From positions 105,288 to 169,287 of the forward strand of contig CAZBPC010000001.1 of the NCBI GenBank assembly GCA_964493715.1: DNA of 64,000 nt, read 5' to 3'. Position numbers and translations under genes: made by a program. Positions 25,872 to 43,826 of the stretch are shown piece after piece; within the stretch, counting starts at the first letter, position 1; the number at the start of each line of letters is the position of its first letter. The DNA is from an uncultured archaeon (GTDB lineage Archaea; Asgardarchaeota; Lokiarchaeia; Sigyniarchaeales; SOKP01). The notes beneath the pieces are model-generated. The model did no database searches. It had not been told where the DNA came from and was given only the letters and a program-made list of their open reading frames with translations.

Positions 25872-25880
25872 GGTGAGAAA

Positions 25881-26168: not shown

Positions 26169-26206
26169 TTATTTAACGGATGCCTTACATGGAATAATAG
26201 AATATT

Positions 26207-26467: not shown

Positions 26468-26487
26468 GAATATAAATCCTAATAGAT

Positions 26488-26507
26488 CTATATAAATAAC
26501 AAAAAAA
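26488..26507 (-). promoter_or_regulatory. T-tract/TATA promoter
   Basis: TTTTTTTGTTATTTATATAG, 20 nt before ATG 26467. Confidence 0.5.
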
Positions 26508-26525
26508 CAAAAAAAGAATTTTCAA

Positions 26526-27050
26526 TTAAGTACTTTTTAAAATATAATCTTCATTTCGGTTCATGAGATGTCCCTCTTTCAAAGCTCGCCTCATTAGGTT
26601 GGCAAATTCTGATTGAGGAATGTGTTTATTTTCTGCCATAATTTCAATGATATATTTTGGAAAAGTTTTATACATCTCAGAGAGTTCTCTTAACATTAAG
26701 ATAAACGAATTAAACATTTGCTCATCTTTATCTTCATTTTTTGATGGTAATATAGAAACATCACTCACATTACTCGAAGCAATCTTAAATCCTCCTTCTG
26801 AAACAAAATCAGGCTCTCCTTTCAGTTCTTGTCGACTAAATTCATGTTGTAAACGTTTTGTTCTATTTACCGCATTTGTCATTCCATTAACTAGCTCTGA
26901 TTTATTTAAGAGGCTCTCGACTTTATGAGAATGCCCACAACGTAAACATTTTTTTGTCTTTTGCGTTGTTTTTACATAACTAAACTGGTGACATTTATGG
27001 CATGCAAATATCAGGTATGGGGTCTCATCTCGCTTCCATTCTTCTTCCAT
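26526..27050 (-). CDS. Zn-ribbon (DUF1922-like) protein with possible C-terminal winged helix
   Basis: YLIFACHKC...KTKKCLRCG; GAGGTGA SD; coupled to the Hef-like gene. Confidence 0.65.
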   Translation of the reverse strand: MEEEWKRDETPYLIFACHKCHQFSYVKTTQKTKKCLRCGHSHKVESLLNKSELVNGMTNAVNRTKRLQHEFSRQELKGEPDFVSEGGFKIASSNVSDVSILPSKNEDKDEQMFNSFILMLRELSEMYKTFPKYIIEIMAENKHIPQSEFANLMRRALKEGHLMNRNEDYILKST

Positions 27051-27055
27051 TCATT

Positions 27056-29245
27056 TCACCTCGTTTTTTTATGAGGTGTATACAAATTTTTAATAATAAA
27101 TACTAATTCTTCGGGAACATCAATTGATATGGTTCGAAACCAGTTTTGATCCCCCCATTCGGAAATCCTCTGCTTGAGCAATCGCTTTTCCCCCTCAAAC
27201 TGTTCGGTGAAATCCTCGAAGTCAAATACGAATAAGACGAGTTTCCTTGCTTGTCGAAGCCGTATCAAATCCTTCTCTGATATGGACACGCTTTCTTTAA
27301 TAAACGTGCGAGGATCGATAATAAATAAAGAAATTTCAGAAAAAAGATCAATTCTCCTTCCAGTTTCCTGCAAACCAAGGATGATACCTTCTTTTTGTAA
27401 TTTTTTACGTAAACCAAATTTCCCCGGCACATCCTTGCTAATCAATATTTCTGGATCTGGAATTCTCAATGAGGTGCTGGATATAGGATGCTCAGGTTTC
27501 GAAGAAGAAAAATAAGATACCAAGGTTTCTTGGTTTGGAGATCGAGGTTTTGATGGTGGCAAATATTTAATTTTACTAGTCACCTTTTCAATTTTTTGTT
27601 TGAATTTTACTTCTTTCGTATCTCCCATATCATTTTCCTGATAATTAATTGGTCCTTTTTTATTAGTTTCCTCTGTAGACACCTTAAGATTATCATTCAT
27701 TTTTTGTATTTTATTGAGTGCAATTCTTAAGTAAATTTCATCATTAGTCTCCTTGGTATACAACAAGATGACCTTACCTTCTTTTTGACGAGCAGTTCGT
27801 CCCTTTCTTTGGATATACCTGATTTCTGATGCCACAATATCATAAAATACCACTATATCGCATTCAGCGATATCCAATCCTTCCTCCGCTACATTTGTAG
27901 CTACGAGAACATTAAATATGCCTTCCTTGAAGGACTTCAGAATCTCCAGTTGTCTTTTTTGACTCATTCCCTTATCTTTTTTTGACTTGGTCGCTTGCCC
28001 CACGAATCGAGTGGGCTTGATCATGGATTCTTTTTCCAAACGTGAAGTGATATTTTGGATAGAATCCCTCAATTTTACGAATACCAAGATTCTTGAATCG
28101 GGATTTTCATGTAATTGATCGATTAGTATCTTTTTTAAAACAATATATTTAGGATGGATCAAACCTTCTGGATATTCGGATTCATGATTTTTTAGTTCAA
28201 GATAAATTCGACGTATTCGGTTATCTCCTGCTAGATTCTGATTTGCCTTGCTACTGTTCTGCTTTCGGGCCTCTTTCATTAATTTTTCTAAATACGTGAG
28301 TAGGATATCGAGTCCTTGTTGTTCGATGAGTTCTAACATGTGATATAGAATGAGTCCTTGGGCATTAACTGAAATAACACCATAGACACTCTTATCCCCA
28401 GAGGACATCTGCTTGATTAATTCTGTATTGAGCCTTAACAGGTCTTTTCTTGTTATCTTTTTTACCAACGTTTCTCCTTTTTTTTCGATATGCCCCATTT
28501 GGGAGAGATATTGAAGTCGTTCTTCCACCAAGCGATTGATAACGATCAGAGCATCTTCCATTAATTCTGTCATATCCACTCCGATTTTAAATATATTCAT
28601 TGGTTGTAAGTAGTTTTTCACATCTTCATCCTTTCGGGTTCTCACGTGGACATTGTTTTTATCAATATGTAATAATTGACATAGTTCATTAATGCGTTCC
28701 TTGGAAGATCCCGGTGAAGCGGTAAGTGCTAATATGGTACCGTCGGGGTTTTGGTCTTGAAAGGTGTCTGCAATGAGTCCATAGGGATAATCGCCACTTG
28801 CGTGGTGTGCTTCATCAAAGATGATAAGGCAAGTGTTTTTGAGGTCATAATGTTTTGCAACTAAATCATTTCTTAGAGTTTGAGGGGTATAAAATAAGAT
28901 CTGATGTGCTTCAAATAATTTAGGTCTTTCTTCTGATGGATTTTTCCCAGTAAGCGTAATCATAGAATCATCGGGAATTGCGAGGAATTGAGCAAATGAT
29001 TCATGATGCTGATTAATTAAAGGACGTGTAGGTGCTAGAACAATAATTTTTGAATTTCTGGGATAGGATTGGAGTGTTTCTGCTACTACCAATAGTGATA
29101 TGATGGTTTTTCCCAGACCAGTAGGGATGACCACTAATGAGTTTCTATTTACACACTTTTTCGCAATTTCTACTTGGTATTCTCGAAATTGGATTTTATT
29201 TGTTTCAAGGAATCTAAAGGGACTCATTTCGGTCGCACGGGCCAT
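27056..29245 (-). CDS. hef: Hef/FANCM/Mph1-like SF2 helicase with degenerate C-terminal nuclease region
   Basis: REYQ, PTGLGKT, DEAHH, LTASPG, RFVGQ, GMSQKRQ, ATNVAEEGLDI, QRKGRTAR. Start set at ATG 29245 after an AGGAGG SD. Confidence 0.88.
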   Translation of the reverse strand: MARATEMSPFRFLETNKIQFREYQVEIAKKCVNRNSLVVIPTGLGKTIISLLVVAETLQSYPRNSKIIVLAPTRPLINQHHESFAQFLAIPDDSMITLTGKNPSEERPKLFEAHQILFYTPQTLRNDLVAKHYDLKNTCLIIFDEAHHASGDYPYGLIADTFQDQNPDGTILALTASPGSSKERINELCQLLHIDKNNVHVRTRKDEDVKNYLQPMNIFKIGVDMTELMEDALIVINRLVEERLQYLSQMGHIEKKGETLVKKITRKDLLRLNTELIKQMSSGDKSVYGVISVNAQGLILYHMLELIEQQGLDILLTYLEKLMKEARKQNSSKANQNLAGDNRIRRIYLELKNHESEYPEGLIHPKYIVLKKILIDQLHENPDSRILVFVKLRDSIQNITSRLEKESMIKPTRFVGQATKSKKDKGMSQKRQLEILKSFKEGIFNVLVATNVAEEGLDIAECDIVVFYDIVASEIRYIQRKGRTARQKEGKVILLYTKETNDEIYLRIALNKIQKMNDNLKVSTEETNKKGPINYQENDMGDTKEVKFKQKIEKVTSKIKYLPPSKPRSPNQETLVSYFSSSKPEHPISSTSLRIPDPEILISKDVPGKFGLRKKLQKEGIILGLQETGRRIDLFSEISLFIIDPRTFIKESVSISEKDLIRLRQARKLVLFVFDFEDFTEQFEGEKRLLKQRISEWGDQNWFRTISIDVPEELVFIIKNLYTPHKKTR

Positions 29246-29249
29246 TTTA

Positions 29250-29837
29250 TTATCCTCCTTTAATGTATATTTGATAGCCATCAATGTTAACGTGGGAAGG
29301 ATCACGGTTAGTTTTTTTAAACATAGCAATCTCAGTTCCTAATCTTATAGCTAAGGGTGAAGGGTATAGTAGAAAATTTTCCCCCGAGTTGAAAAAATAG
29401 GGATAGTTCTTGTATAAACGCACAATTTTCTTCGTGAGCTGAGAGTTAGCAATCTGAATATCAAAACCCTTTCCAATCTTCACTCCTTGGAAATAAAGAA
29501 CCATGTCACTTAAATCATTTGCTATTTCTTGAGAGATCCATACTTCCTTCCTCTCACCATGCCAAACTTGTTCATTTCTGGGCCAGATGGTTAAATAATT
29601 TTTGCCATTCATCCATCTTTTCTCTAGTTGATATCCCTTAAATGAATTTAAGAATAAATCTTGAAACTGTAAGATGAGTTCCATGATAGATTCTGTTTCT
29701 TCACTTGAGATGTCCCATTGAACGGCTAATTTGCTAAAATTAAACGATTTATTCGAATCTTTATCAAATTTCTTAAGATTTAAAATGAGATTCTTCAATC
29801 CTTGAAGAGTAGCCAAAAATTGTGTTCCTTTTTGCAT
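29250..29837 (-). CDS. Hypothetical protein, first gene of the hef operon
   Basis: 195-aa ORF, apparently leaderless behind the T-tract/TATA motif. Confidence 0.65.
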   Translation of the reverse strand: MQKGTQFLATLQGLKNLILNLKKFDKDSNKSFNFSKLAVQWDISSEETESIMELILQFQDLFLNSFKGYQLEKRWMNGKNYLTIWPRNEQVWHGERKEVWISQEIANDLSDMVLYFQGVKIGKGFDIQIANSQLTKKIVRLYKNYPYFFNSGENFLLYPSPLAIRLGTEIAMFKKTNRDPSHVNIDGYQIYIKGG

Positions 29838-29859
29838 TAAAGAATATCATCGTCGAAAT

Positions 29860-29874
29860 TATTTAAAAAAAAAA
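29860..29874 (-). promoter_or_regulatory. T-tract/TATA promoter of the hef operon
   Basis: T-run+TTTAAATA, then ATGATA, 22 nt before the ATG. Confidence 0.65.
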
Positions 29875-29932
29875 CTTTACTAAATAACACTTCGAAAAAG
29901 GCAATGACAATTATAAAAAAGTGAAAAAAATC

Positions 29933-32854
29933 TCATTTTTTGAATTTATATATCTTTTTATCTGCTTGCTTTCTTCCAGCCGTGTAGATGATTGTTCCCG
30001 GTACTGAAATGAATCCAATGATGAGACCTACTGCCCATAAAAATTCGCCTTCGGATAGATTGAATTCAGGTGGACTTGGATTCCCAGTTAAAGAAATTTG
30101 CGTTTCTCCCATTAATATCGATTCAGATGCATAACCATCATTTATGTAAATTAATATTCGGTATGAATCCGTATTAAGTGGCGTGTAAAGGAGTGAAAAT
30201 ATCGTATATGTCAAAAAATCCTTCTGAGTAAATTCAATGTTTTTAAAGAACACCTGATCCTTATATATCTCGATATAAGCATGACCTTCAAATAATGGAG
30301 TCTGCCCGGTGCCAAATTTTTGAGACGCGTTGATCGTAATCAATAAGGTCTTAGAAGTATTTGTCCATGACACGCTTTTTATTAATTCATAGTAGGTACT
30401 AATAAAGATCTCTTGAGTAGCTATCTTATCCAAACCTTCATATACAGAGATGTATCCTGAAGCTAAAGGATAACAGGAAGGATCCGCAGGAATGTAAATT
30501 GATTTTTCATAAGTTCCGTCTGGAAGTACATCTAACACACTTGAACCTGCGAATTCGGATTCAAATTTTACAGTGGCATAAGGTCCGAATTTTTCCAATA
30601 CCAGGTTACCTAATTCTACCGATAAATGACAGTATTCACCTAGTAGTATAGGTCCATCTTGAGTCGCATCTATTCGCACATCATCATTTCTTGCCATTTC
30701 AAATATCCATCCAAAAATACATGGCTCTATTTGTTCCCTCTCTGAAGTGAGAAAAAATTGGTTAAATTCGTTCGAATAAATCGACTGGATTAGAGATTGC
30801 GTTTGAGTTATGTTAAATTGAACGGAAAGGTCATATAAACTCGCAATTTTATAGCAATAATAGATATTTTTAATATTAGTATAATTGAGGTTCGCTTCTA
30901 CAAATTGCTGAACTTTTACATGGTTGAGATCCGGCTCTCCTAATGCATTTAGGATATATAATGCTTGATAGGTGTTTTCCAAGGCTTTTTCTAGAGTATT
31001 ATCGTGGAATGGCAATAAATAAATAAAATTAGCAGTTTCTACCAAGCTTCGAGAAATATGGGTAATTAGAGCATCTGCATCCATTAAAAGATCTCGTAAT
31101 GGACCTACATTCAACTCCTTGGTAAGAAGCTCTAAGGACCGAATAGCATTATAGGAGTTCTCGAATACTATAGTTTTTGCTTGCCTTTCGTCAGAAAATA
31201 TCATGTCTTGCACTGACATACAAAATCCCCCGAACAACTGAGATTTAGAGGGATTTAAGTATTGCGCGTTAGTGATCCCATGAATCACGGTACTCAAGTT
31301 TATATCGCTCTTTAGATCATCCATTTTAAATAGTATCTCTAACACGTTTAATGCATCGAGCATCCATTCTAGTGAAAAATAATTTCTCACTTCAGGAATG
31401 ATATTATAATCGCTAAATGTTATAAATTCTATAGGATGGGATCGAAACCATCCCCTAGTAATATCCATATCAGTACTTCCCAAGAATCCATAGCCATCCA
31501 CTGAATCGAAATACTTTATAGTAGCACTAATCCAATCGTATAATTGTTGTATCGGAAGTTCACTTAGACGGTTCATAACATCATAAGAACCTATCAATGA
31601 CTGTAATTGAGCTAATGATTGGTAGTCGTTAGTTAGAGGAGCATATCCTCCTTTTGATTTACAAAAGGAAATAAAAGATGCCACTTGAGCCTTTTCTAAT
31701 AGGCTAAGAGAATTAAGCTCACTCGTTCCTTCTAAAGATCGAACAATCTCAAAAGTATCAATGAGTTCATGATAAGGAACCGTGCTGGATGATACCCATC
31801 CTCCCAAGTGAGTTCTTCCGTCCAATATGAATGAGATTAATTGAGTTCTGTCAATTCCTGTAAATCCCATTATATCAGATAATTCCAATCCGATTGCACT
31901 AGCTACGATATTACTTTCATTGAGTGGATATGGAAATTGAGATACAGAGAAAAAATTCTTGTCTGAATCGTATAATGCTTCCAAATAACCATAAAAATCT
32001 TGTATGTCGATAGTTTGTTCCATTCCAAGCACTTCCAATGACTTTATTGCATAAAACGATGAACGTAAGTTAGGATCAAATGCATCAATAGAATTAAAGG
32101 ATATGTCCAGATCATTATAAAACCCCCCACTCCCGGCTTGTAATGAATTTAAGTACACTATCAGATCATCTATCACATTTTGATAGGGCGTCCAATCGCT
32201 CAATAACATATCTAAAGTGATGAGCGCATAGTAGGTATTATCGGCAGTTGATATTAAATATTTTGGCTCTAAATTCATGTCAAAGGGTCTTCCAATGAAC
32301 CCTGAAGTGATGGGATTATAACAGCTCCAGATAAAATCAATGAGTTTCTGGGAATCAATCGATCCTAATTGATATAGCATGTTCAGGGAAAGAAGTCCGT
32401 AGCAGGTGACTTCAAGCACGCTGGTCAAGGGATAAAATTTTTCCTCAAAATCGACATCCAAGTATCTATAAGTTGTATCATCAATGAAGCAAGAGTTCAA
32501 CGGCATGCAATGACTCATTATATATTGTCCAACTGCAACTTCATCCACTTGCGAAAGTTTTCCAAGAGCCCGTAATGTAGAAAGTGCTTGATATGTAGCT
32601 TGAAGGGTAGGTTGGTAATAACTTGAGAAGTAACCATTAGCATTATATTCAGCCGTCTTTTCGGTCAAAATATCCTCCAGAAATTCCATAGTAGCATCAG
32701 AAGTGAGAGGAGAGAACTCTTGCTGGTCAAATGAGGAATATTTACCCCGCCCAACTGATTGTTGCCCCGCTACATTGTAAAAGATTGAAAATAAGAGTGT
32801 ACAAATGGTACATATCAACAATAGACCCATGCTTACCTTCATGTATAATTTCAT
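29933..32854 (-). CDS. Surface-anchored prenyltransferase/squalene-cyclase-repeat (alpha/alpha toroid) protein
   Basis: Signal peptide; repeated GGF/GF...TYYA...L..L units; C-terminal beta region, TM helix and basic tail. Confidence 0.7.
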   Translation of the reverse strand: MKLYMKVSMGLLLICTICTLLFSIFYNVAGQQSVGRGKYSSFDQQEFSPLTSDATMEFLEDILTEKTAEYNANGYFSSYYQPTLQATYQALSTLRALGKLSQVDEVAVGQYIMSHCMPLNSCFIDDTTYRYLDVDFEEKFYPLTSVLEVTCYGLLSLNMLYQLGSIDSQKLIDFIWSCYNPITSGFIGRPFDMNLEPKYLISTADNTYYALITLDMLLSDWTPYQNVIDDLIVYLNSLQAGSGGFYNDLDISFNSIDAFDPNLRSSFYAIKSLEVLGMEQTIDIQDFYGYLEALYDSDKNFFSVSQFPYPLNESNIVASAIGLELSDIMGFTGIDRTQLISFILDGRTHLGGWVSSSTVPYHELIDTFEIVRSLEGTSELNSLSLLEKAQVASFISFCKSKGGYAPLTNDYQSLAQLQSLIGSYDVMNRLSELPIQQLYDWISATIKYFDSVDGYGFLGSTDMDITRGWFRSHPIEFITFSDYNIIPEVRNYFSLEWMLDALNVLEILFKMDDLKSDINLSTVIHGITNAQYLNPSKSQLFGGFCMSVQDMIFSDERQAKTIVFENSYNAIRSLELLTKELNVGPLRDLLMDADALITHISRSLVETANFIYLLPFHDNTLEKALENTYQALYILNALGEPDLNHVKVQQFVEANLNYTNIKNIYYCYKIASLYDLSVQFNITQTQSLIQSIYSNEFNQFFLTSEREQIEPCIFGWIFEMARNDDVRIDATQDGPILLGEYCHLSVELGNLVLEKFGPYATVKFESEFAGSSVLDVLPDGTYEKSIYIPADPSCYPLASGYISVYEGLDKIATQEIFISTYYELIKSVSWTNTSKTLLITINASQKFGTGQTPLFEGHAYIEIYKDQVFFKNIEFTQKDFLTYTIFSLLYTPLNTDSYRILIYINDGYASESILMGETQISLTGNPSPPEFNLSEGEFLWAVGLIIGFISVPGTIIYTAGRKQADKKIYKFKK

Positions 32855-32901
32855 TTTTGTAACCTAAAAATATTGCATTTAACCCTAACTGAATCTATAA
32901 G

Positions 32902-32917
32902 TATTTAAATAAAAAAA
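32902..32917 (-). promoter_or_regulatory. T-tract/TATA promoter
   Basis: TTTTTTTATTTAAATA upstream of 32854. Confidence 0.55.
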
Positions 32918-33083
32918 GAAAAAAACTCTCAACATTACTTAAATTAATGTTATCTAATCAGATTATGTTTAATCCTAATTTTGATAAGAAAAAGCGAAAA
33001 AATGGAAAACCCGATTGACACATGAAAAATAAGGTAAAAATAGAAAGAGTAAAAAATGTCAGTCTCCAATTGGAGACCAATCA

Positions 33084-34313
33084 TCATGGTCCTACCACCT
33101 GCAGGGGGGGACCTTTTGGATAATAGTAATTACGCACCTTGATGGTAATCTTCTCGCTACCCGGTGTTCCTAACGGAATGATCATTTTTGAACTGGAAAA
33201 CTCGTGTTCATAATCTATTGGTGATTTATTTAATAAAATAAATGATCCTAAATTGGTTCTAACAGCATGCAAGTAATATTCAAAGCTTTCATGAGGATTA
33301 AAGATTTTCTGAGCGGCCCCCAATTTAACCTCCATTAGCGATTGAACCAAGGGCATCTCCTCCTCTTGCTCAATTAACCCGAACTTGATCATGATTTTCC
33401 GGAGCAGTTCAGATGATTTCACCAAGCTTTTAAACCCTTCCACTCGCAAGTGATTGAACACATTCTGTTCCACTTGATGTTGAATGGTACTCATTTGTAT
33501 CCCAAGATGAGAGCAAATAGTATTTACTTTTAATCGTTTCTGCTTGTCACATAACGCAACAATGCTACAAACGACCCCAGCAATAACATCATCTTTCGTG
33601 CATTTAATAGTTTCCCAGAAAGTGTACATTATTCTTTTAGCGGTATCGTAAAACTCCATGTTCATTCCAAATTGTTCTGTTATCTGTAATATTTTTTGTA
33701 GAATGTAATTCTTCCGATCTCGCTTTTGGTAATACGGGATAAAGTTCTTCACTTGGAGCTTGAAGGCGTTAAATTCTTTCTTGGTTATTCGGGAAATCTC
33801 AAGGAGTTCTTGTTCATTAATCCCCTTGCAATTTAGCTTAAAATGAAGGTAAATGGTAATTGGTACCAACTTCTCCGGACTCCTGAATTTCGTTCCAGGT
33901 TGTAACACTTTTCTAATGGCACTAAATTGTTTGAAAATCGGTTGTAATTCAGATAATGGAAGGGCTAAACCTGATAAGATCCTCCTAATCTCTTTTTGAG
34001 CTTTAATCTTCACGTCTTCCTCACGATCTCGCTCTGAATCAAGTTTTTGCCATTTTTGCAATTGAACTGATTGAGCTTTGGTAACTCGTTCTTTATAAAA
34101 TCCTATTTGAGTTTTTCCACGAGGAGCGTTTTGAATTACGGCTTCATCATAAGGATGATGGTATTCAAAGACTAAACTTGAGAGAATTATTCCACAATTC
34201 GCACATACGTACCCTTCCCGGGTTTGTTTGATGTCCGTGGAATTGCACGCATCACAAGCGGAAATATCATTGTCTACTGAATACTCTTCTTGCTGCCATT
34301 TTTTTATTACCAT
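33084..34313 (-). CDS. Divergent TFB/TFIIB paralogue
   Basis: Zn ribbon CDAC...YVCANCG; cyclin repeat 1 (AQKEIRRILSGLALP...PITIYL); cyclin repeat 2 (FYDTAKRI...IAGVVCSIVAL); C-terminal extension. Confidence 0.8.
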   Translation of the reverse strand: MVIKKWQQEEYSVDNDISACDACNSTDIKQTREGYVCANCGIILSSLVFEYHHPYDEAVIQNAPRGKTQIGFYKERVTKAQSVQLQKWQKLDSERDREEDVKIKAQKEIRRILSGLALPLSELQPIFKQFSAIRKVLQPGTKFRSPEKLVPITIYLHFKLNCKGINEQELLEISRITKKEFNAFKLQVKNFIPYYQKRDRKNYILQKILQITEQFGMNMEFYDTAKRIMYTFWETIKCTKDDVIAGVVCSIVALCDKQKRLKVNTICSHLGIQMSTIQHQVEQNVFNHLRVEGFKSLVKSSELLRKIMIKFGLIEQEEEMPLVQSLMEVKLGAAQKIFNPHESFEYYLHAVRTNLGSFILLNKSPIDYEHEFSSSKMIIPLGTPGSEKITIKVRNYYYPKGPPLQVVGP

Positions 34314-35086
34314 TTAATAACCACTTATTTTAATATTTTTTAGTCGATCTAGTCGACCACAATTTTATATTGCATGAGTTTGATTTTTGAACCTTATCTT
34401 TCTCACTTTTTGTCACTCGGATCACTAATTCTAAAGGGATCATAATAAATTTTCATAAAAAATTGGAGAGATAGAAAACAAAAATATTAAAATTGTTTAA
34501 TAATCTTTATAATTAAGAAGAAGAGAGGAGAGATAGAAAAATCGAACTTGAAAATATATTTCACTGATTTCATTTCGTGGATCACCCCCAAAAATAACTC
34601 GTGAAGAAGTAGACGCACATCGATGTTATTTCTTAAATTGACTCCAATAATGAAAAAGAATAGCTTTCTCATTATCTATCTAAATGAGGAAACAGTTTAC
34701 TTTGGTTGATTATCACACATGCTCTCATTTTTTAATTTTGCTTCCTCAAATCCCTTTTCATGCGTGCTACTCTTTATTTTTAAGAACTTATTTAAACTCA
34801 ACTAAACTTTAAAAATTTGAGTTACTCCTTTTTAAGGTTATTATTATTTTATAATGTAATATAGATTGGAGATATGAATTTTCCATCAAGTCGATGTAGA
34901 ATTGCAAAAGTCAAAAAAATCATAGAGCAGTATCTTAATGCCCTAAAAAAAGGATCCTAAAATATTTTTCACATTATTAGGTGGATGTAAAATTCAGTAG
35001 TTATAAGACCCAAATTAATGGCGTGTTTTTTGTAAAATAAAATTTCCTAAAAAGTTTATAACTATTTAGCTTCTTTTGATTACACG

Positions 35087-35692
35087 GTGATTATATTAAT
35101 AATAAAAAATAGGAAACTTTCAGAAAAAGAGCTTTCACAAATTTTTAACGTGGTAAAACATCCATTGCGGAGAGGGATTCTTAAACTTTTATCTAATAGT
35201 CCACAATCTTATACAATGATTTTGAAAAGCCTTGAGATTCCTGAAAGCAGCATTTTAAACTATCATTTAAGAGAAATGGACGATTTATTGATTAACAAAG
35301 ATGATTGTGGAAAATACATATTAAACGAAATCGGAGAAATTTGTGTGCAACTTATACTTAGAGTCAAGGAAAAAGAGGATATTCATAGTATCAATAAACT
35401 TCAGTTAATGGTAGAAAAATTAAAATCAACATTATTTTGGATTCAAATAGTATTCTTACCACTTTTAGTTATTTTAGCATTAGAACTCTATATGCTAAAT
35501 ATTATTAATTTTGGATCTATTCTTGAAATTTTTACTTCAAGTGTGATTTTTAGTACAATATTTGGAACTAGTTTCATCATAATTAATAAAGAATTGGGCA
35601 TTACCTTAGAAAAGAAAGAGAAAATCGGAAATTATTCCATATTATTTACCGTTTGGATACTGGTTCAAACAATATTCACTCTTATATGGTAA
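35087..35692 (+). CDS. ArsR-like winged-helix protein fused to three TM helices
   Basis: KHPLRRGILKLL...SYTMILKSL...LNYHLREM...KYILNEIG, then a hydrophobic C-terminal half. Confidence 0.7.
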   Translation: MIILIIKNRKLSEKELSQIFNVVKHPLRRGILKLLSNSPQSYTMILKSLEIPESSILNYHLREMDDLLINKDDCGKYILNEIGEICVQLILRVKEKEDIHSINKLQLMVEKLKSTLFWIQIVFLPLLVILALELYMLNIINFGSILEIFTSSVIFSTIFGTSFIIINKELGITLEKKEKIGNYSILFTVWILVQTIFTLIW

Positions 35693-35721
35693 TTAGTTAT
35701 TTTTTAATTAAAGGGTTCCAA

Positions 35722-35750
35722 TTTTTTGTTTAAATAGAAATGCATGATAA
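35722..35750 (+). promoter_or_regulatory. T-tract/TATA promoter of the 45-aa ORF
   Basis: TTTTTTGTTTAAATAGAAATGCATGATA, nearly identical to 43871-43899. Confidence 0.65.
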
Positions 35751-35784
35751 TCCTCAATAGGAATTAATTTGAGGTATACATGAA

Positions 35785-35922
35785 ATGGAAGTTGAATTTG
35801 CAATATTAATTGAAGAAATGAGAAGTGAAGAACCTTTTGATTATGCTGCGTTTTTTGATTATTCTCGATTCTTACCTCCTGGAGAATTGAGTCTCTCAAA
35901 AGACAGTAATATCGTCTGGTAA
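35785..35922 (+). CDS. Small 45-aa protein missed by the ORF track (MEVEFAILIEEMRSEEPFDYAAFFDYSRFLPPGELSLSKDSNIVW)
   Basis: GAGGT SD at 35771, a T-tract/TTTAAATA promoter at 35722 and a T-run directly after the TAA stop. Confidence 0.55.
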   Translation: MEVEFAILIEEMRSEEPFDYAAFFDYSRFLPPGELSLSKDSNIVW

Positions 35923-35942
35923 TTTTTTTTTTAATATTCTAA

Positions 35943-35959
35943 TTTTTTTTATTTAAAAA
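35943..35959 (+). promoter_or_regulatory. T-tract/TATA promoter of the protease-RadB-like operon
   Basis: TTTTTTTTATTTAAAAA. Confidence 0.5.
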
Positions 35960-36011
35960 TAACGAGTGGCTTCTTCTTGCAGAATATAAATAAGAAAAAG
36001 TCAAAAAAAAA

Positions 36012-36770
36012 ATGTACTTATCGATAAGTATTTGGCTCTGGTTTCTCGGCATATGGGTAGTATCGCAAGCCACAAAATCGGTTCTGAGTCGTTCAAGGGG
36101 ATTAATTCGTGGTATTTTTAACATCCTCTTTTTTTTCGGAGTGTTTGTTCATGAATTCAGCCATCTGATGTTTTGTTTCATATTACGCGTCCCAACCAAC
36201 GGAATGAAATTTCAATTCTGGGATAGAAGAATCGGAATGGTAAATCCTGCAGGTTCCGTGGGTTTACCAGAATTCCCTCGGATGTCAATGATGCAAGCTT
36301 TAATGGTGGGTATTGCACCATTATTTGTATCCACTTTCTTATTCATGGGATGCTTAGATCTGATTTTCACGTTTGAAACAACTTTTGAAATTCAATTGTT
36401 CATAATTATTCTTGCGATTTCCATAATCTGTACAGCAGCTCCTTCTGGAGTAGATATCTCGAATATTCTTGACGCTGCAGCTGGAGATCCTCTTCAATCG
36501 TTCCTTCAATTTTTATATGCGGGTGCATCCTTAATGATCAGTATTTATATCGTGGATTTATCGGGCATTATATTGCCTTTAGAAGTGCTGTATTACATAT
36601 CATACTTTACGCTTACAATTATCATTTACTTATTAATTATCCTTATAGTTAGGATGATAAGAGCATCTTTTAGACGTGCATTTCCTACCGACAGTTATTC
36701 TTCACAGCAAGTACTGCGAAAGAGGCATAAACCTAAAAAACCACCAAAACATGAGGAGGGGAGTTGGTAA
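36012..36770 (+). CDS. Membrane zinc metalloprotease (M50-like/DUF3267)
   Basis: GVFVHEFSH (HExxH), VGIAPL, APSGVD, multiple TM helices. Confidence 0.75.
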   Translation: MYLSISIWLWFLGIWVVSQATKSVLSRSRGLIRGIFNILFFFGVFVHEFSHLMFCFILRVPTNGMKFQFWDRRIGMVNPAGSVGLPEFPRMSMMQALMVGIAPLFVSTFLFMGCLDLIFTFETTFEIQLFIIILAISIICTAAPSGVDISNILDAAAGDPLQSFLQFLYAGASLMISIYIVDLSGIILPLEVLYYISYFTLTIIIYLLIILIVRMIRASFRRAFPTDSYSSQQVLRKRHKPKKPPKHEEGSW

Positions 36771-37114
36771 ATATGAAAGGGATGTGTTTAATAGTTATTG
36801 GATTGGCTTTTTTTATGGTTTATCAAACCAATCCAATGGGAACACTCATTATTGCTGGAGTGATTCTCGCTGGCTATGCGTATATCAAATCTAGAAAGAA
36901 AGGCAGTTCAAGGAGAAAAGGGGTATTTTTTGGGAAGGGAGTGAGATCGATGCAAGAAAATTCTCCAATTAATGAAATCATGACAATGTTTTTAGTCCAG
37001 CAGATTTTGGATAAAAATCGTGAGAAACTATCATCTTCAGAATCTCAAGAAAAGGATCAAGAAATATTGGAATTGGAACAAAAGAAGCGAGAAATCCTGT
37101 CCCTATTGGAGTGA
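36764..37114 (+). CDS. Small membrane protein with coiled-coil tail
   Basis: Two N-terminal TM helices, basic patch, C-terminal coiled coil; overlaps the upstream gene. Confidence 0.6.
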   Translation: MVNMKGMCLIVIGLAFFMVYQTNPMGTLIIAGVILAGYAYIKSRKKGSSRRKGVFFGKGVRSMQENSPINEIMTMFLVQQILDKNREKLSSSESQEKDQEILELEQKKREILSLLE

Positions 37115-37122
37115 AATGAATA

Positions 37123-37827
37123 ATGATGAATGTATTATCCTTACTCGAAAATAATTTGAATGAGAGAGGTCAAATTATCTCCATTTCTGGTTCCTCAGGA
37201 ACGGGAAAAACGACTCTTGCGCTTCAAATTGTTGCGGAATCATTGACTGCTAAGGTTCCATTTGAAGAACAATGTTTGTGGATACAAGCAAGTGAAGGCT
37301 TTCCAAAAAAACGACTGGAATCAATGTTACGATCTGAACCCTCAACCCTGAATTTCTTGTTGAAAAACACGTTTATCGTGCCATCAAGGAATGTCTTTCA
37401 TGATTTTGATGAACAATCCAAATCGTTACGTGATATTCCTTTACAATATTTACCCCCTGAGATTAAATTTATAGTTATTGATAACATCTCTCATCATTTA
37501 AGATACCGAATAGCTGAAGTAAATGATTTTGCAGGTCGGTCTAAGATTATAAACAGATTTTTTGATGAGATCTTATTTCCTCTCATCATGTTTTGTAAGA
37601 GAACTCAGATTCATCTCATTTTGATTCATGAAGTATCACAAGATCCTGAAACCGGAAAAACTAGATCATTTTATCATAAATTATTCGACAGAATTCAAGA
37701 TATATCAATCACTTTAACTCGACCAGGTTATAGTAACTTGAGATCTCAGATGCAAGTCGAATTTGGTGAGGAGCAACTTATAAAATCTTATATATTGGAT
37801 GATATAGGATTAGTCCTAACTACTTAA
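37123..37827 (+). CDS. RadB/Rad51-paralogue-like RecA-fold ATPase
   Basis: GQIISISGSSGTGKTT, WIQASEGFPKKRL, IVIDNIS, LILIHEV; no N-terminal HhH domain. Confidence 0.78.
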   Translation: MMNVLSLLENNLNERGQIISISGSSGTGKTTLALQIVAESLTAKVPFEEQCLWIQASEGFPKKRLESMLRSEPSTLNFLLKNTFIVPSRNVFHDFDEQSKSLRDIPLQYLPPEIKFIVIDNISHHLRYRIAEVNDFAGRSKIINRFFDEILFPLIMFCKRTQIHLILIHEVSQDPETGKTRSFYHKLFDRIQDISITLTRPGYSNLRSQMQVEFGEEQLIKSYILDDIGLVLTT

Positions 37828-37919
37828 TTCTTCTCTTCGGAGACATAATTTTTCTAATTAACCCTTATTAAGTCCTTTTTAACTGCACTTAAAGGAAAAA
37901 AAAATTTCAAGGATCTATC

Positions 37920-37945
37920 TTTTTCTTTAAATATGCTGGATGATA
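37920..37945 (+). promoter_or_regulatory. T-tract/TATA promoter
   Basis: TTTTTCTTTAAATATGCTGGATGATA, TATA 22 nt before ATG 37956. Confidence 0.65.
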
Positions 37946-37955
37946 TTTATGTTAC

Positions 37956-38333
37956 ATGTCAAGCCATCATGATTCTGATACCAATGATACCAATTCGGTC
38001 GTGATATGTTCAGTGTGTCATTCAGAGATTATTGATCTAGTCGGAGTATATCAGTCACCAGTAAATTTTGCAGTCGTGTGTAAAAAATGTTTGACTCGAT
38101 TTACGCGCAATGACATCGAGATGATGATCGGTCTCTTTTTTTTATATGGAGGTTATTTTGGTAAATTAAAAAATAGAACTTTCTCGTTAAATAAAGTGCT
38201 TTCAAGCATGGATATGCCTATTAACAAGGAAGAAGTTGAAGAGATGAATCAAAGGCTAATGCATCAAGCGTTAATTCACGGGCTCAGGCCATTTGAATTC
38301 AACAAAAAACTTGCTCTTTATACTGGTTATTAG
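37956..38333 (+). CDS. Zinc-finger hypothetical protein
   Basis: CSVC...VCKKC; own T-tract/TATA promoter. Confidence 0.6.
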   Translation: MSSHHDSDTNDTNSVVICSVCHSEIIDLVGVYQSPVNFAVVCKKCLTRFTRNDIEMMIGLFFLYGGYFGKLKNRTFSLNKVLSSMDMPINKEEVEEMNQRLMHQALIHGLRPFEFNKKLALYTGY

Positions 38334-38377
38334 TGAATGATATAACTTTTTTGATATGAAATCAATATTTTATAGAA

Positions 38378-38391
38378 TTTTTTATTTAAAA
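38378..38391 (+). promoter_or_regulatory. T-tract/TATA promoter of radA
   Basis: TTTTTTATTTAAAA. Confidence 0.5.
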
Positions 38392-38455
38392 GCTTTTGAA
38401 TTAATTTCACCCTAAATTGAAATTTATAATAAAAATAGCATAAAAATGAAATATC

Positions 38456-39709
38456 ATGGCAGAATTGGATTTAGTAAAAAATATTAATGCCAGGCAGATC
38501 AAGCTCTTGCAAGAAAACGGTATCAGCAGCGCAGAAGCGTTGGCAATGTCCCCACACACCATAATAAGCGAAATCGATGGACTTGGGGAAAAGACGGCAA
38601 AAAAGCTCATTTGGAATGCTCGAAATGCATTAGGAATGAGCGAATTTATCACTGCTGAAGATATTGATGAGAACACCGAATACATCACGACCGGTTCAGC
38701 CGAATTGAACCGAATACTTGGAGGGGGTTTTCAAACTGGAAAACTTACCGAAGTTTACGGTCCCTTCAAATCTGGGAAAACTAATTTAGCTCACACGATT
38801 TCAGTTTCCGTCCAATTACCGAAAAATAAAGGAGGATTAGGAGCTAAAGTAGCATATATTGATACGGAGAATACTTTTTCTAAAGAGAAAATTAAACGGA
38901 TTGCCAAAAGATTCGGGGTGGATCCAAAAAAAGTACTTTCTGGCATCTTTCATGCTAGGATTTTTAGTTCTGATCATCAAGCTCAAATGATTAGTAAAGC
39001 TGAAACACTTTGCAAGACGCGCGGAGTTCGTCTCATCATTATGGATTCCCTAATGGCACTCATGCGGGCTGAATTCGTTGGAATTGGAATGCTCGCTAGG
39101 AGACAAAGCGTGCTTAATAATATGATCCACGCTCTTTCTAGAATTGCAGAAACTTACAATTGTGCTGTCCTACTCACTAACCAAGTTGCCACCAAAATGA
39201 TGGGTATGTTCTCAAGTGATGATGCAATCGGTGGAAACATCATAGCGCACGGGTGTCACTTCAGGGTAATGTTCAAAACCAAGGGATTCTCCTCCAATAA
39301 TTCATTAAAACGAAGAGCTATCATCGTGGATGCCCCAGATCTTGCACCAGAAGAAGTCGAATTTTACATTACAAGCGTGGGTATTGCTGATACAGAAAAC
39401 GCTGAATTACCCAAAGGAGATACGACCGGATTTGAAGTTCCTTCATTATACGAAGAGGTTGATGATGATGAAATCGAGACTTCTATCACCCCTGATACAC
39501 CTTCTGAAAGAGAGAGCGATGAAGAAAACCTTACATCTGTAAAGGGAATCGGAGCCGGTATGGCTGTTCAACTTAAGAAAGCAGGAATTAATTCGGTTAA
39601 CGAGTTAATATCTGCCCAACCGGAAGAAATCGCTTTAAAAGTGAGCGGTGCATCATTGAAAAAGGTTCAAGAATGGCAGGGCAATGCGAAGGGCATGGTC
39701 CAAATATAA
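38456..39709 (+). CDS. radA: RadA/Rad51 recombinase (divergent) with extra C-terminal HhH domain
   Basis: N-terminal HhH, FITA polymerisation motif, TTGS..L..ILGGG, GPFKSGKT, YIDTENTF, DSL, TNQV, IGGNIIAH; acidic linker then NLTSVKGIG. Confidence 0.9.
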   Translation: MAELDLVKNINARQIKLLQENGISSAEALAMSPHTIISEIDGLGEKTAKKLIWNARNALGMSEFITAEDIDENTEYITTGSAELNRILGGGFQTGKLTEVYGPFKSGKTNLAHTISVSVQLPKNKGGLGAKVAYIDTENTFSKEKIKRIAKRFGVDPKKVLSGIFHARIFSSDHQAQMISKAETLCKTRGVRLIIMDSLMALMRAEFVGIGMLARRQSVLNNMIHALSRIAETYNCAVLLTNQVATKMMGMFSSDDAIGGNIIAHGCHFRVMFKTKGFSSNNSLKRRAIIVDAPDLAPEEVEFYITSVGIADTENAELPKGDTTGFEVPSLYEEVDDDEIETSITPDTPSERESDEENLTSVKGIGAGMAVQLKKAGINSVNELISAQPEEIALKVSGASLKKVQEWQGNAKGMVQI

Positions 39710-39787
39710 ATCAAATTGCGTTTTTTTTAATATCTTTATTTTATTCCTGAAAAAAAGTATTAATAGCATATTAGTTTCTTTGTAGTT

Positions 39788-40600
39788 ATGAAAATTTGCC
39801 TGATTTTTTTCTCACCAACTAATAATACTGCTCAAATAGCAGATGTAATAAAAGAGGTATTAGTTGAGAGAAGTATTGGTGTGGATTTGCATGATATAAC
39901 ACCATATGCAGAAAGACAGAAAAAATTTGATCTTCAAGATTATGATGCTTTTTTTTTTGGATTCCCAATTCATGTTCAAAGAGTGCCATCTATTATTCGG
40001 GATTGGATTCATACCTTGAATGGAGGGGGAAAGTTTTGTTCAATATTTTTTACGTATGGAGGGGTAACTACTGGAATTGCTCATTATGATACAAAAAGAA
40101 GATTAGAAAGTCAAAATTTTCAAATTATTTCGACTGCAGAATTCTTAGGAAAACATACATTTAACCTTGGTGGTTGGAATTTAATGCCTGATAGACCAAA
40201 TGAAAAAGATTTCTCAGTTGCGAGAGTATATACTATTAAAACCCTTGAAAAAATTATTTCACACAATACTCAAATGATCGAATTCGAAGAACCTAAAATT
40301 ACTGAAAAACAACTCAACCGATTAGATAAAGTACCAAAGGGAGGCATGACACCACCTTCACGTAAGGGAAAGGCTTGTTGCATGTGTTTAAAATGCGAAA
40401 TAGAATGTCCAAATAATGCAATGGATGCTAATGCGGGAATTTCTAATGGAAAGAAATGCATTAGATGTTTGAGGTGTGTATTTATTTGCCCAGATAATGT
40501 TCTTGAGATTAACGATATGAGACCAGCATATTCCGTTATTGTTAATGCTGAAAATACCCCAGAAAAATTAGCGAAGAAAGAGAGTAAATACTATTTATGA
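39788..40600 (+). CDS. EFR1-family flavodoxin-ferredoxin fusion
   Basis: FFSPTNNT flavodoxin start; two CxxCxxCxxxCP motifs. Confidence 0.85.
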   Translation: MKICLIFFSPTNNTAQIADVIKEVLVERSIGVDLHDITPYAERQKKFDLQDYDAFFFGFPIHVQRVPSIIRDWIHTLNGGGKFCSIFFTYGGVTTGIAHYDTKRRLESQNFQIISTAEFLGKHTFNLGGWNLMPDRPNEKDFSVARVYTIKTLEKIISHNTQMIEFEEPKITEKQLNRLDKVPKGGMTPPSRKGKACCMCLKCEIECPNNAMDANAGISNGKKCIRCLRCVFICPDNVLEINDMRPAYSVIVNAENTPEKLAKKESKYYL

Positions 40601-40608
40601 GTAAATTA

Positions 40609-41106
40609 TTATTCTAAAGGATTTTTAATAAGGTAATTACTGACATACCTTAACAATTTTTTTTCAATAGCCCACTTTATTATCTTATTAGCTGTTTCAA
40701 AGCTGCACCATTTCCAATCAGTGTGTTCAGCAGGGTTCAATACTGGATCCTTAGGGCGATCTATACGAGCGATGAAATTATAAAATGTAATCTCTTTTAC
40801 TTCTTCTTGAAGATGAGGAGGAGATTGATCACCTTCATCTTCTTCATTTTCCGCATATAATTCTTGAGGTATATTTATCGGGAGAATAAGAGTAGGAATG
40901 TAACCTGTTTCTTCAAAAAGTTCTCTTTTTGCACACTCAAGAGGACTTTCTCCTTTCGGGTGATCAAGTGCCCCCATTGAATCTCCTACTGAACCAGTTA
41001 CGTAATGCTAATTATAACTCAAAGTAGCTCTTTTTATCATGAGAAACTCTAACTTATTCTCTTTGTACCTGATAGGATACACTCCTACCATCTCTTTCTT
41101 AACCAA
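40609..41106 (-). pseudogene. NUDIX hydrolase (NudB-like) interrupted by an in-frame TAG
   Basis: Nudix box GESPLECAKRELFEETG. The frame continues upstream as MVKKEMVGVYPIRYKENKLEFLMIKRATLSYN*HYVTGS, with TAG at 41008-41010 where Trp is expected. Confidence 0.7.
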
Positions 41107-41336
41107 ATTAATCACTTTAAATCATGTTTACGTAAAGATTTTTGTGTTTACATGGACCACCATACAAGATAGACTTTTATATATTTTAATTCCCACATTG
41201 ATTTAATGTCTTTTCATCTATTAAGGTAAAATTTTGATTACAATTCATAGTTTTATTTATATGATAGGAATTTTCATTGAAATAAGACTCTGAATTTACT
41301 TTTGTAATGAATTAAGTATGAATATCGATTGATTAG

Positions 41337-43761: not shown

Positions 43762-43826
43762 GTCATCAAAACCTTATCTCATAATTAAAAGATAAAGAGA
43801 TAGTTAAGAGAGTTTCTTGACATTTT

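Follow-up and report, generated by a model that had tools for sequence, protein, structure and literature searches.

A highly divergent TFB-like protein and T-run promoters in an accessory island of Lokiarchaeia-type Asgard archaea

Archaeal TFB paralogues are widely suspected of acting in a sigma-like manner. To our knowledge, clear cases of a TFB paralogue with its own promoter element are scarce. In eukaryotes, the TFIIB-family factors have diversified into forms specific for Pol I, II and III, and the host lineage studied here belongs to the archaea that are closest to eukaryotes. TFB3 of the Sulfolobales is known as a short TFB form in which the DNA-binding core, i.e. the cyclin core and the HTH, is missing. 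This TFB paralogue is reported to activate a DNA-damage regulon that includes the Ups pili and the Ced DNA import (PMC6101594, PMC6101591). TFB2 of Sulfolobus acidocaldarius has been linked to a cell-cycle regulon, and a preprint describes its TATA and BRE motifs as resembling those of TFB1 with a different spacing (bioRxiv 10.64898/2026.09.06.749720). Asgard viruses and MGEs encode accessory TFB homologues which are reported as likely to redirect host transcription (10.1101/2021.07.29.453957, PMC13700489).

Here, we describe a TFB-like gene at 33084..34313 on the minus strand of the window, i.e. of the whole stretch of 64,000 nt that was analysed, and an island of about 42 kb (9448..51596) that shares T-run promoters. 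A description of such a TFB-like/T-run island system was not found in the published literature, and the accessory island of duplicated recombination genes, previously undescribed, is defined by this analysis. Since the sequence itself shows the promoter element, the altered helix that would read it and the putative regulon, and since all three are conserved across genera, they provide a clean, directly testable case. If the TFB-like factor does drive the T-run promoters, Lokiarchaeia-type Asgard archaea would have an orthogonal transcription channel resembling that of a sigma factor.

A divergent TFIIB-family protein with an altered HTH

The ORF at 33084-34313(-), taken from the ORF list with the stop codon inside these coordinates, encodes a protein of 409 aa with 219 relatives at E<=1e-3. 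An earlier note on this DNA had read a Zn ribbon and two cyclin repeats from it, and both were confirmed. The Zn ribbon comprises residues 18-45 (34179..34262, minus strand). Its cysteine pairs C20-x2-C23 and C37-x2-C40 were invariant in an alignment of 30 relatives, and the model showed strands at 28-31, 34-37 and 43-45. The ribbon aligned with the canonical one and matched the profile of the TFIIB ribbon 1pft (E 0.033); the match to Pfam Zn_Ribbon_TF was weak (E 0.15). The first cyclin repeat (residues ~100-198; 33720..34016, minus strand) was modelled with a pLDDT of 89-96 and matched the TFIIB core cyclin 1 profile (E 0.0017). The second repeat (residues ~199-290; 33444..33719, minus strand; pLDDT 87-98) was assigned by structural alignment to TFB/TFIIB cores. 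The blocks of the entire modelled cyclin core, residues ~100-310, had a pLDDT of 87-98.

When the core was compared with known structures (VIA), it superimposed on the P. woesei TFB core 1d3u_B with Z 17.3 and an rmsd of 2.8 A over 198/201 residues at 14% identity. The best 39 matches were all TFIIB, TFB, Brf1 or Brf2, and the Brf1/Brf2 cores (Z 12.5-15.3) ranked below the archaeal TFB. With Foldseek, the first 38 matches listed were all of the TFIIB family (E 9.9e-7). Alignment by hhalign against the seven canonical TFBs of the same genome extended from the ribbon to the HTH (257 columns, probability 96.9%, E 1.8e-10). In the TFB phylogeny that had been called for, a long, fully supported branch (100/100) parts the protein from all seven canonical paralogues.

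The segment between the ribbon and the core (residues 46-99; 34017..34178, minus strand) is B-reader/B-linker-like, as judged from family invariants and from its alignment to canonical motifs. P54, Y55, T68, G71, E75 and R76 are conserved in the family, HRPY corresponds to the canonical WRAF and G-x-TQIG to GLSTxI, both being family-conserved, and the segment has a low pLDDT in the structure model. The B-reader had been called divergent, which it is, yet it is recognisably retained in these two motifs. A C-terminal extension of ~90 aa had also been claimed and was located at residues 318-409 (~92 aa; 33087..33362, minus strand), outside all TFIIB structural alignments. It ends in a conserved K-G-P-P with P402 and P403 at least 90% conserved, and the model contains low-confidence strands at 323-329, 348-353 and 356-361. 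A search of the Protein Atlas with the tail residues 311-409 gave no usable match.

The protein had no match to Pfam PF00382 (TFIIB) at E<=1 and reached 20.6 bits with the NCBIfam TFIIB model PRK00423, below its cut-off of 384. The genome has two proteins that match PF00382 weakly (C70, C108), and both were rejected as TFBs, one being a response regulator and the other acetyltransferase-like. A protein that fails all curated TFIIB thresholds and bears 92 additional residues at its C-terminus, with KGPP conserved at their end, might no longer initiate transcription. It could be a decoy for TBP or the polymerase, or a cyclin-fold protein that engages another partner through the tail. We regard this as very improbable, since ribbon, linker-like segment, cyclin repeats and HTH follow one another as in TFB, and the family strongly conserves the HTH, the ribbon and the motifs of the linker-like segment. 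We conclude that the ORF encodes a full-length, highly divergent TFIIB-family protein.

The HTH at the end of the second repeat (residues 262-287; 33453..33530, minus strand) was analysed with the model and by column comparison. Helices were modelled at 263-270 and 274-287, so the HTH fold is present. The string KVNTICSHLGIQMSTIQHQ (residues 262-280) aligns to the canonical R-T-Q-x-x-I-x-x-x-x-x-V-T-E-V-T-I/L-R-x-R, and its recognition helix is substituted to M274 S275 T276 I277 Q278 H279 Q280. The columns that are invariant across the seven canonical TFBs of the genome are Q277, T287, E288, T290, R292 and R294. In the TFB-like protein, five of these six are replaced (N265, Q/K273, M274, Q278 and Q280) and the Thr alone is kept. 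M274 and Q280 show no variation in the 30-row family alignment and reach 90% conservation or more in the alignment of 118 rows. The canonical BRE-reading residues T-E-V-T-I/L-R-x-R are not present in this HTH. The altered C-terminal HTH that had been noted at the outset is thus borne out, with family-conserved residues in the place of the canonical invariant ones.

T-run promoters and a proposed mechanism

The lead genes of the island are preceded by the motif TTTTTT-N-TTTA(A/T)ATA, in which six T's occupy the BRE position and adjoin the TATA in a fixed register. The canonical promoters of the host genome are A-rich, and the tRNA genes, inspected by eye, have A-rich BREs. A PWM was trained on 10 island sites; like the regular expression, it derives from the 64,000-nt window. 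On the minus strand, the element precedes the gene 9448-10605 (10620..10637, PWM 20.1), the 5-gene membrane operon that begins with 19807-20607 (20628..20645, PWM 20.1), the HhH gene 21038-23218 (23237..23254, PWM 19.8; orthologues 16.4 and 13.4) and the operon of 29250-29837 and the Hef-like helicase (29859..29876, PWM 19.1). It is also found on this strand before the 973-aa gene, which immediately follows the TFB-like gene (32901..32918, PWM 19.7), the Zn-ribbon gene 43444-43761 (43826..43843, PWM 22.1) and 46411-46839 (46852..46869, PWM 19.3).

On the plus strand, the operon of 36012-36770 and the RadB-like gene has the element at 35943..35960 (PWM 17.6; orthologues 10.4-19.2), and a further site lies 274 nt before 36012-36770 (35720..35737, PWM 19.2). 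The other plus-strand promoters precede 37956-38333 (37917..37934, PWM 15.2; orthologues 10.9-21.0), the RPA-like gene 48058-48999 (48003..48020, PWM 19.2) and the operon of 49089-49622 and the GTPase (49021..49038, PWM 19.6; orthologues 9.6-20.2). A site at 43870..43887 (plus strand, PWM 19.7) points in the opposite direction, with no called ORF within 3 kb.

The pattern T6-N-TTTAWAW occurs upstream in gene orientation in 11/35 island genes versus 12/3163 genes elsewhere, and beyond the island neither orientation is preferred (12 vs 17). A-rich versions are biased two-fold in orientation across the genome and hardly occur within the island (0-1 of 35). Similarly, an upstream PWM score of at least 14 was found for 11/35 genes in the island and 27/3070 elsewhere. 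At a score of at least 18 the genome has 21 matches (reversed control 11), 11 of them inside the island. In the host genome, the T-run element is practically private to the island of the TFB-like gene.

A genome-wide T-run regulon was considered and rejected, since the motif does not exceed the control level once the island is left out, and its 13 carrier genes elsewhere are a heterogeneous set (M20 peptidase, ThiF, HEAT, VTT, radical SAM, CoA ligase, MscS and six without a Pfam match). Terminators of the upstream genes were also rejected as an explanation of the T-runs, since several lie in divergent intergenic regions and keep a fixed register with the TATA. When all upstream regions were pooled, their k-mer and position profiles gave no signal beyond a Shine-Dalgarno bump.

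The region upstream of the TFB-like gene (34314..35086, minus strand) is without a T-run promoter, as the earlier note had stated; the best PWM score is -7.5. It contains a TATA-like element followed by a GTGATC box (~34411-34436, minus strand), and a similar TATA with a GTGATC-type box was seen by eye upstream of the orthologues in other genomes. When the gene's own promoter was scored with the PWM in nine genomes, the T-run motif was absent from eight.

These features suggest a mechanism in which TBP, of which the host genome has a single copy (C13:41760-42449), would bind the TTTA(A/T)ATA boxes of the island and the TFB-like factor would dock on the TBP-DNA complex with its cyclin core, as canonical TFB does. 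The HTH of the second repeat, with Met, Ser, Thr and Gln where canonical TFB has Glu, Val, Thr and Arg, would then read the six-T element at the BRE position. The retained ribbon and the B-reader/linker-like segment would recruit the RNA polymerase, and the whole island might be switched on as one unit, as happens to the genes under an alternative sigma factor in bacteria. The TFB-like gene itself, under an ordinary promoter, would stand at the top of the cascade. By analogy with TFB3 of the Sulfolobales, the inducing signal could be DNA damage or DNA exchange. Among sequencing runs, none with RNA was found for positions 29000-38500 of the window. The predicted complex of the TBP core (residues 36-229) and the TFB-like core (95-315) had an ipSAE of 0.01 in both runs (mark 0.32), which is evidence neither way.

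The island and its distribution across genomes

The extent and contents of the island were taken from tblastn synteny in five other genomes, from domain calls and from the housekeeping flanks. The island includes the 5-gene membrane operon with a VirB4-like protein, the HhH protein, Hel308-like and Hef-like helicases, a DUF1922 protein, which is a Zn protein, and the 973-aa surface protein of the alpha-toroid type. It further contains the TFB-like gene, RadB-like, RadA-type, FEN1-like and RPA-like genes, a small GTPase and a Zn-ribbon protein of 105 aa with 63-70% identity across genera. Since RadA lies inside, we considered the island as part of the core chromosome. This was rejected, since three relatives that are 98-99% complete have no island-type RadA and keep only copies of ~42%. 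The island is an accessory set of spare genes for DNA recombination, helicases and membrane proteins that occurs in one Lokiarchaeia-type Asgard family.

Within the genus the island is accessory, and some genomes have as many as 3-4 copies of it. The same-genus copies of the TFB-like protein have only 38-49% identity to that of the window, and the island holds second copies of RadA, FEN1, RPA and Hef-type genes. This would be compatible with a mobile element or its descendant, whose own TFB redirects the host RNA polymerase, and Asgard viruses and MGEs encode TFB homologues according to two reports (PMC13700489, 10.1101/2021.07.29.453957). The mechanism would overlap with the sigma-like reading, while origin and purpose would differ. 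A mobile origin is improbable in our view, since the borders have neither an integrase nor a tRNA, housekeeping genes flank the island, and the gene order is conserved across two families. When the IMG/VR viral contigs were scanned with the family alignment, 39 pattern matches were obtained and 0 were confirmed by tblastn. In PHROGs, nine of 10 island proteins had no match and the tenth had a weak, SieB-like one (E 1.7e-4).

In other genera, the T-run motif, as scored by the PWM, is retained before the orthologues of the lead genes and is absent before the operon-internal genes; seven orthologues of the 973-aa gene score 13.0-19.5. This is support independent of the training of the PWM on island sites. 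In 40 kb around the homologues, sites with a PWM of at least 14 were counted against the control. The hits were 10/0 in G170, 19/3 in G203, 12/3 in G227, 8/2 in G274, 8/2 in G261, 7/3 in G249, 8/7 in G149 and 3/2 in G189. Sites with the exact pattern lie near the TFB-like gene in 9/30 cases in G203 and, within 25 kb of three copies, in 11/35 cases in G170.

The motif-to-control ratio was 1.76 (3220/1834) in the gene-bearing family, 0.90 (154/172) in the sister family and 0.68 (54/79) in three other families, a co-occurrence that amounts to one or two evolutionary events and not to many. In those genomes of the family that are without the TFB-like gene, the motif excess was lower but present (1.39 vs 1.87). 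The sister family has a distant TFB-like relative with a different helix (ITASTVY) and a syntenic island. It also has a variant T-run motif, of which 3/3 genomic matches lie within 12 kb of this relative.

The note had proposed to test whether this TFB clade co-occurs with T-tract promoters. The two co-occur across genera and, in the variant form, in the sister family. In 15/98 assemblies that are positive for the 1261-aa island marker, however, the TFB-like gene was not found. Seven of the 15 (93-99% complete) were tested again with every candidate scored, and 7/7 were negative. Conversely, 13 assemblies have the TFB-like gene without the marker. Assembly gaps may be the cause of the missing gene in some cases but probably not in all. 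In one of these genomes, G238 (99% complete), where the TFB-like gene is missing, a contig of 19.5 kb carries the island in compact form, with eight PWM matches of at least 13 (control 1), four of them at least 18. In this island, the 973-aa gene abuts a membrane gene with no TFB-like gene between them. It has diverged so far from the island of G257 that only Hel308 aligned between the two (68% nucleotide identity). Retention of the motif and the gene set without this TFB had been named as evidence against the proposal, and G238, with its gene set and four strong T-run promoters, goes part of the way.

The island-bearing genomes without the gene are in keeping with a different reader of the T-run, in which case the TFB-like protein could be a passenger of the island or a co-activator that does not itself recognise the T-run. 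The T-run in the place of a purine-rich BRE would then make the promoter weak by design and dependent on an activator. Possible readers are another DNA-binding protein of the island, for which the conserved 105-aa Zn-ribbon, the DUF1922 Zn protein and the HhH protein are candidates, a canonical TFB, or a poly(dA:dT) structure that excludes histones. The TFB-like protein could assist as TFB3 does in the Sulfolobales, where two papers give the precedent of a TFB paralogue activating a DNA-damage regulon (PMC6101594, PMC6101591). We consider this unlikely, though less so than a mobile origin. The T-run stands in a fixed register just upstream of the TATA, where TFB contacts DNA, the family-conserved substitutions fall exactly on the canonical recognition-helix columns, and the sister family differs in both helix and motif.

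Taken together, the sigma-like reading, with the TFB-like factor driving the T-run promoters of the island, is the best explanation, and we give it an even chance of being correct. It is unproven, and the island assemblies without the gene and the T-run promoters of G238 speak against it. The inference in the note that the altered helix reads the T-rich element, which would make this protein the master regulator, has partial support, from comparative genomics. The fuller proposal is more tentative and falls somewhat short of an even chance. In it, a TFB paralogue with a changed helix (Arg/Glu to Gln/Met/Ser) reads poly-T at the BRE position as an orthogonal sigma-like channel and switches on the island as one unit, and the helix has evolved together with its element in the two sister families. 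With recombination genes and a VirB4-like membrane machine, the island may serve a DNA-exchange or repair programme and was possibly subject to horizontal exchange.

Comparison with known systems

Like canonical archaeal TFB (P. woesei TFBc-TBP-BRE/TATA, PDB 1D3U, 1AIS), the TFB-like protein has, in this order, a Zn ribbon, a linker-like segment, two cyclin repeats and a C-terminal HTH. It differs by its low identity of 14%, the ~92-aa tail, the five of six replaced invariant HTH residues and its link to T-run instead of A-rich promoters. Factors of the Brf1/Brf2/Rrn7 type combine a TFIIB-like N-terminal half with a C-terminal extension that has its own partner-binding blocks. The extension of the TFB-like protein (318-409) has no detectable similarity and a low model confidence.

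With the TFBs of Asgard viruses and MGEs, the gene shares that it is an accessory TFB copy in Asgard archaea. It differs in lying in a chromosomal island with housekeeping flanks and had no relative in IMG/VR. The likeness to bacterial alternative sigma factors is a functional analogy only, in that an initiation factor with an altered helix for DNA reading would be dedicated to a regulon with a private promoter element. No family membership is claimed, and the mechanism of the TFB-like protein is the one we infer above.

TFB3 of the Sulfolobales resembles the TFB-like protein as a TFB paralogue that is tied to genes of the DNA-repair and DNA-exchange type. The counterpart gene set of the island consists of RadA, RadB, Hel308, Hef, FEN1 and RPA-type genes and the membrane operon with the VirB4-like protein. 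In contrast to TFB3, the TFB-like protein is not truncated, and its core and HTH are both complete. The two come from different phyla and are not orthologous as far as tested. TFB2 of Sulfolobus acidocaldarius is likewise a TFB paralogue of full length for which a promoter set of its own has been proposed. Compared with what the preprint cited above describes, the TFB-like system has an inverted composition at the BRE position, and its putative regulon is one physical island.

A divergent TFIIB-family protein with an altered helix

The open reading frame at 33084-34313 on the minus strand encodes a protein of 409 amino acids, here called TFB-like. Pfam gave no TFIIB match for it (Zn_Ribbon_TF at best, E 0.15), the NCBIfam TFIIB model PRK00423 scored 20.6 bits, below its cut-off of 384, and a PDB search with the single sequence found no match. 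A profile of 30 family sequences matched the TFIIB core (E 0.0017) and the TFIIB ribbon 1pft (E 0.033). [quoted passage not shown] An AlphaFold2 model was built with 118 relatives and had a mean pLDDT of 77.8, with block means of 87-98 at residues 101-310. Its best structural match was 1d3u_B, the P. woesei TFB core in the TBP/BRE/TATA complex (Z 17.3, rmsd 2.8 A, 198 of 201 residues, 14% identity). In the structure search the first 39 rows held TFIIB, TFB, Brf1 or Brf2 only, and Foldseek was concordant. We conclude that the gene product is a TFIIB-family protein although the curated models miss it; the divergent TFB paralogue with zinc ribbon and cyclin core described in the earlier note was thus recovered by profile and by fold.

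The earlier note had also described a rewritten HTH helix. The HTH columns Q277, T287, E288, T290, R292 and R294 are invariant across the canonical TFBs and read N, K/Q, M, T, Q and Q in the TFB-like family, so that five of the six are substituted and the threonine alone is kept. In the numbering of the TFB-like protein, M274 and Q280 were invariant in a 30-row family alignment, and M274, S275, T276 and Q280 were at least 90% conserved in one of 118 rows. Since the replacement residues are conserved, the helix has been swapped for another conserved sequence and has not decayed. The B-reader is divergent as proposed, but the segment between ribbon and core can still be aligned, with HRPY opposite WRAF and G-x-TQIG opposite GLSTxI. 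The C-terminal extension of about 90 residues was borne out: residues 318-409 lie outside every TFIIB alignment, were modelled with low quality and end in a conserved KGPP. A similarity search with this tail gave no match.

Among 5.8 billion proteins, 219 relatives were found at E<=1e-3, with named source organisms of the Loki/Promethearchaeota type and a few labelled Hodarchaeota or Hermodarchaeota; at 50% identity the family falls into 354 representative clusters. A search of 398 genomes from the phylum, with four candidates scored per genome, found it in 95 of the 132 genomes of the window's GTDB family and in the window's genome. The sister family gave weak partial matches only (2 of 14 genomes), and no further family gave any. 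The phylogeny, rooted at the midpoint for drawing only, placed 21 family members in one group (support 97/92), with two sister-family relatives of about 411-419 residues as its sister (100/100) and all seven canonical TFBs beyond a long branch.

Close orthologues (82% and 78% identity) were found at just 2 of 23 other loci (L013-L036), 22 of which belong to the window's own genus; the other proteins were 38-49% identical to that of the window. One genome (G249) carries three full-length copies and three islands. Deeply diverged island types inside one genus suggest exchange or ancient polymorphism.

The island and its T-run promoters

The gene lies in an island at 9448-51596, whose gene set was defined by domain searches. 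It comprises a five-gene membrane operon that includes a 1261-aa protein, an HhH protein, a Hel308-like helicase, a DUF1922 protein, a Hef-like helicase (568 bits, cut-off 610), a 973-aa alpha-alpha-toroid surface protein, a RadB-like ATPase, a 105-aa Zn-ribbon protein, a FEN1-like nuclease, an RPA-like OB protein and a small GTPase operon. RadA at 38456-39709 on the plus strand (318 bits, over the equivalog cut-off of 259) has an extra C-terminal HhH domain at residues 357-407. Further copies of RadA (42% identity), FEN1 (35%), RPA (30%) and the Hef-type helicase (43%) occur elsewhere in the genome; its two other RadA-like genes (C109 and C5, 42% identity) are the copies kept by island-less relatives. 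Housekeeping genes flank the island, with a proteasome subunit at one border and a threonyl-tRNA editing domain at the other, and no integrase domain was found in these flanking genes.

Upstream of window genes, the motif TTTTTT-N-TTTA(A/T)ATA places six T at the BRE position. A regular expression found 207 sites in the 3.68-Mb genome versus 135 in its reversed sequence as control; 13 of the 207 lie at 10.6-49.0 kb of the window. With an 18-nt matrix (PWM) trained on 10 of the window's sites, 21 genome matches scored at least 18 (control 11), and 11 of these fell in the same interval. Elsewhere in the genome the motif is at background level, and 13 genes outside the island that carry it share no common theme. 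In gene orientation, T6-N-TTTAWAW precedes 11 of 35 island genes versus 12 of 3163 others. The opposite orientation was found at 17 non-island genes, so there is no orientation preference outside the island. A6, A5 and A4 versions precede 0, 1 and 1 island genes and 20, 42 and 64 others, for which the opposite orientation gave 9, 18 and 29, so that gene orientation is preferred two-fold. By eye, an A-run and TATA stand upstream of several of the 16 tRNA genes found by aragorn. At the BRE position, ordinary promoters of this genome are therefore A-rich and those of the island T-rich.

These 16 tRNA genes, none of them in the window, are all that aragorn found in a genome rated 100% complete; intron-containing or split tRNAs were probably missed. 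For the Hel308-like frame at 23253-25871 (plus strand), the TTG start as listed abuts an A-run, the neighbouring T-run promoter in reverse, and the true start probably lies further downstream.

The region upstream of the TFB-like gene scored -7.5, in agreement with the earlier claim that it lacks the motif. In eight other genomes the scores were 0.3, -4.7, 0.6, 14.0, 0.5, -1.8, 1.0 and 3.9. Many TFB-like genes at L013-L036 have a TATA-like box and, after it, a conserved box of the ACTGGTGATCTTCAT / ACTCCCCATCTTC type about 60-110 nt ahead of the start codon, which could be an operator or initiator controlling the factor itself; the window version (34411-34436, minus strand) is weaker, TAGTGATCCGAG. 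A near-perfect palindrome, GTCGA-CTAGA-TCGAC (34342-34358, minus strand), lies 30-45 nt upstream of the start codon and is partly retained in the two closest orthologues. The divergent neighbour at 35087-35692 (plus strand) fuses an ArsR/DUF7347-type HTH to a membrane segment and had no counterpart among eight other islands compared.

Co-occurrence of gene, island and motif

In G203, G227, G170 and G149 the homologue lies amid the same gene set, as does a second-type copy in G249; these genomes represent three other genera and the window's own. PWM matches of at least 14 in their 40-kb regions, against control, were 19/3, 12/3, 10/0, 8/7 and 7/3, respectively; three further genomes (G274, G261 and G189) gave 8/2, 8/2 and 3/2. 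The motif is retained upstream of orthologues of operon-leading genes, and operon-internal genes score low. Upstream of the 973-aa gene, directly downstream of the TFB-like gene, the score was 19.7 in the window and 16.5, 19.1, 14.1, 13.0, 18.2, 19.5 and 15.6 for seven orthologues, against a baseline, in the window's genome, of 0.88% of non-island genes scoring at least 14. Exact-pattern sites lay near the TFB-like gene in 9 of 30 cases in G203, and within 25 kb of three TFB-like copies in 11 of 35 in G170. The motif-to-control count was 3220/1834 (1.76) in the gene-bearing family; the sister family gave 154/172 and three further families 54/79. Gene, island and T-run promoter show a strong association, and it is conserved.

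The island is accessory: three relatives, 98-99% complete, are without the island-type RadA, and G174 has none of three island markers tested. The co-occurrence that the earlier note proposed to test held across genera, but 15 assemblies carry the 1261-aa marker without the gene. In 133 genomes, both were present in 83, the marker only in 15, the gene only in 13 and neither in 22, where the 15 and 13 assume that 15 unitemised marker-negative genomes are those missing from the positive list. A second search of seven of the 15, with all candidates scored, left all seven negative, at 93-99% completeness. In the 99% complete G238, a 19.5-kb contig carries a compact island with intact T-run promoters (PWM scores 22.1, 20.0, 19.7 and 18.6), where the 973-aa gene and the membrane gene stand directly back to back. 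This corresponds in part to what the earlier note named as refuting its reading, genomes that lack the factor and keep motif and gene set. The absence in G234 says nothing because the neighbouring gene lies 294 nt from a contig end. Either the assemblies miss the TFB-like gene in some cases, or the T-run is usable without it. The most economical explanation would be that the altered helix reads the T-run, with one substantive counter-observation against it.

In G181, which is island-positive and without the gene, a 44-residue match to the family N-terminus with two stop codons (C56:8230-8361) may be the remnant of a lost copy.

The sister family and known TFB paralogues

The sister-family relatives in G143 and G138 (411 and 419 aa) keep TQIG...ER and have the helix ITASTVY or VSASTVY. 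Around the G143 gene, a syntenic island holds Hel308, RadA (63% identity), FEN1, the Zn-ribbon protein, the GTPase pair, Hef and a counterpart of the 1261-aa protein. By eye, the promoters of that island carry the variant motif T-run-G-Y-TTTTATAA; the 4.3-Mb genome contains the exact pattern three times (control 1), in each case no more than 12 kb from the gene. Thus helix and element both differ between the two families, which in this single comparison would fit co-evolution.

Single-TBP-like-repeat frames of about 417-432 aa occur in relatives (G239:C1:24050, G257:C48:1694, G260:C100:5691, G200:C1:19172, G220:C14:50754 and G165:C99:1413), with none in the window's genome at E<=1.

A full-text literature search found no description of the TFB-like family or the island. 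Among other paralogues, TFB3 is linked to the DNA-damage response (PMC6101594, PMC6101591), and TFB2, in the cell cycle, is reported to use a similar BRE with a different spacing (bioRxiv 10.64898/2026.09.06.749720). Asgard viruses and mobile genetic elements encode TFB homologues (10.1101/2021.07.29.453957, PMC13700489).
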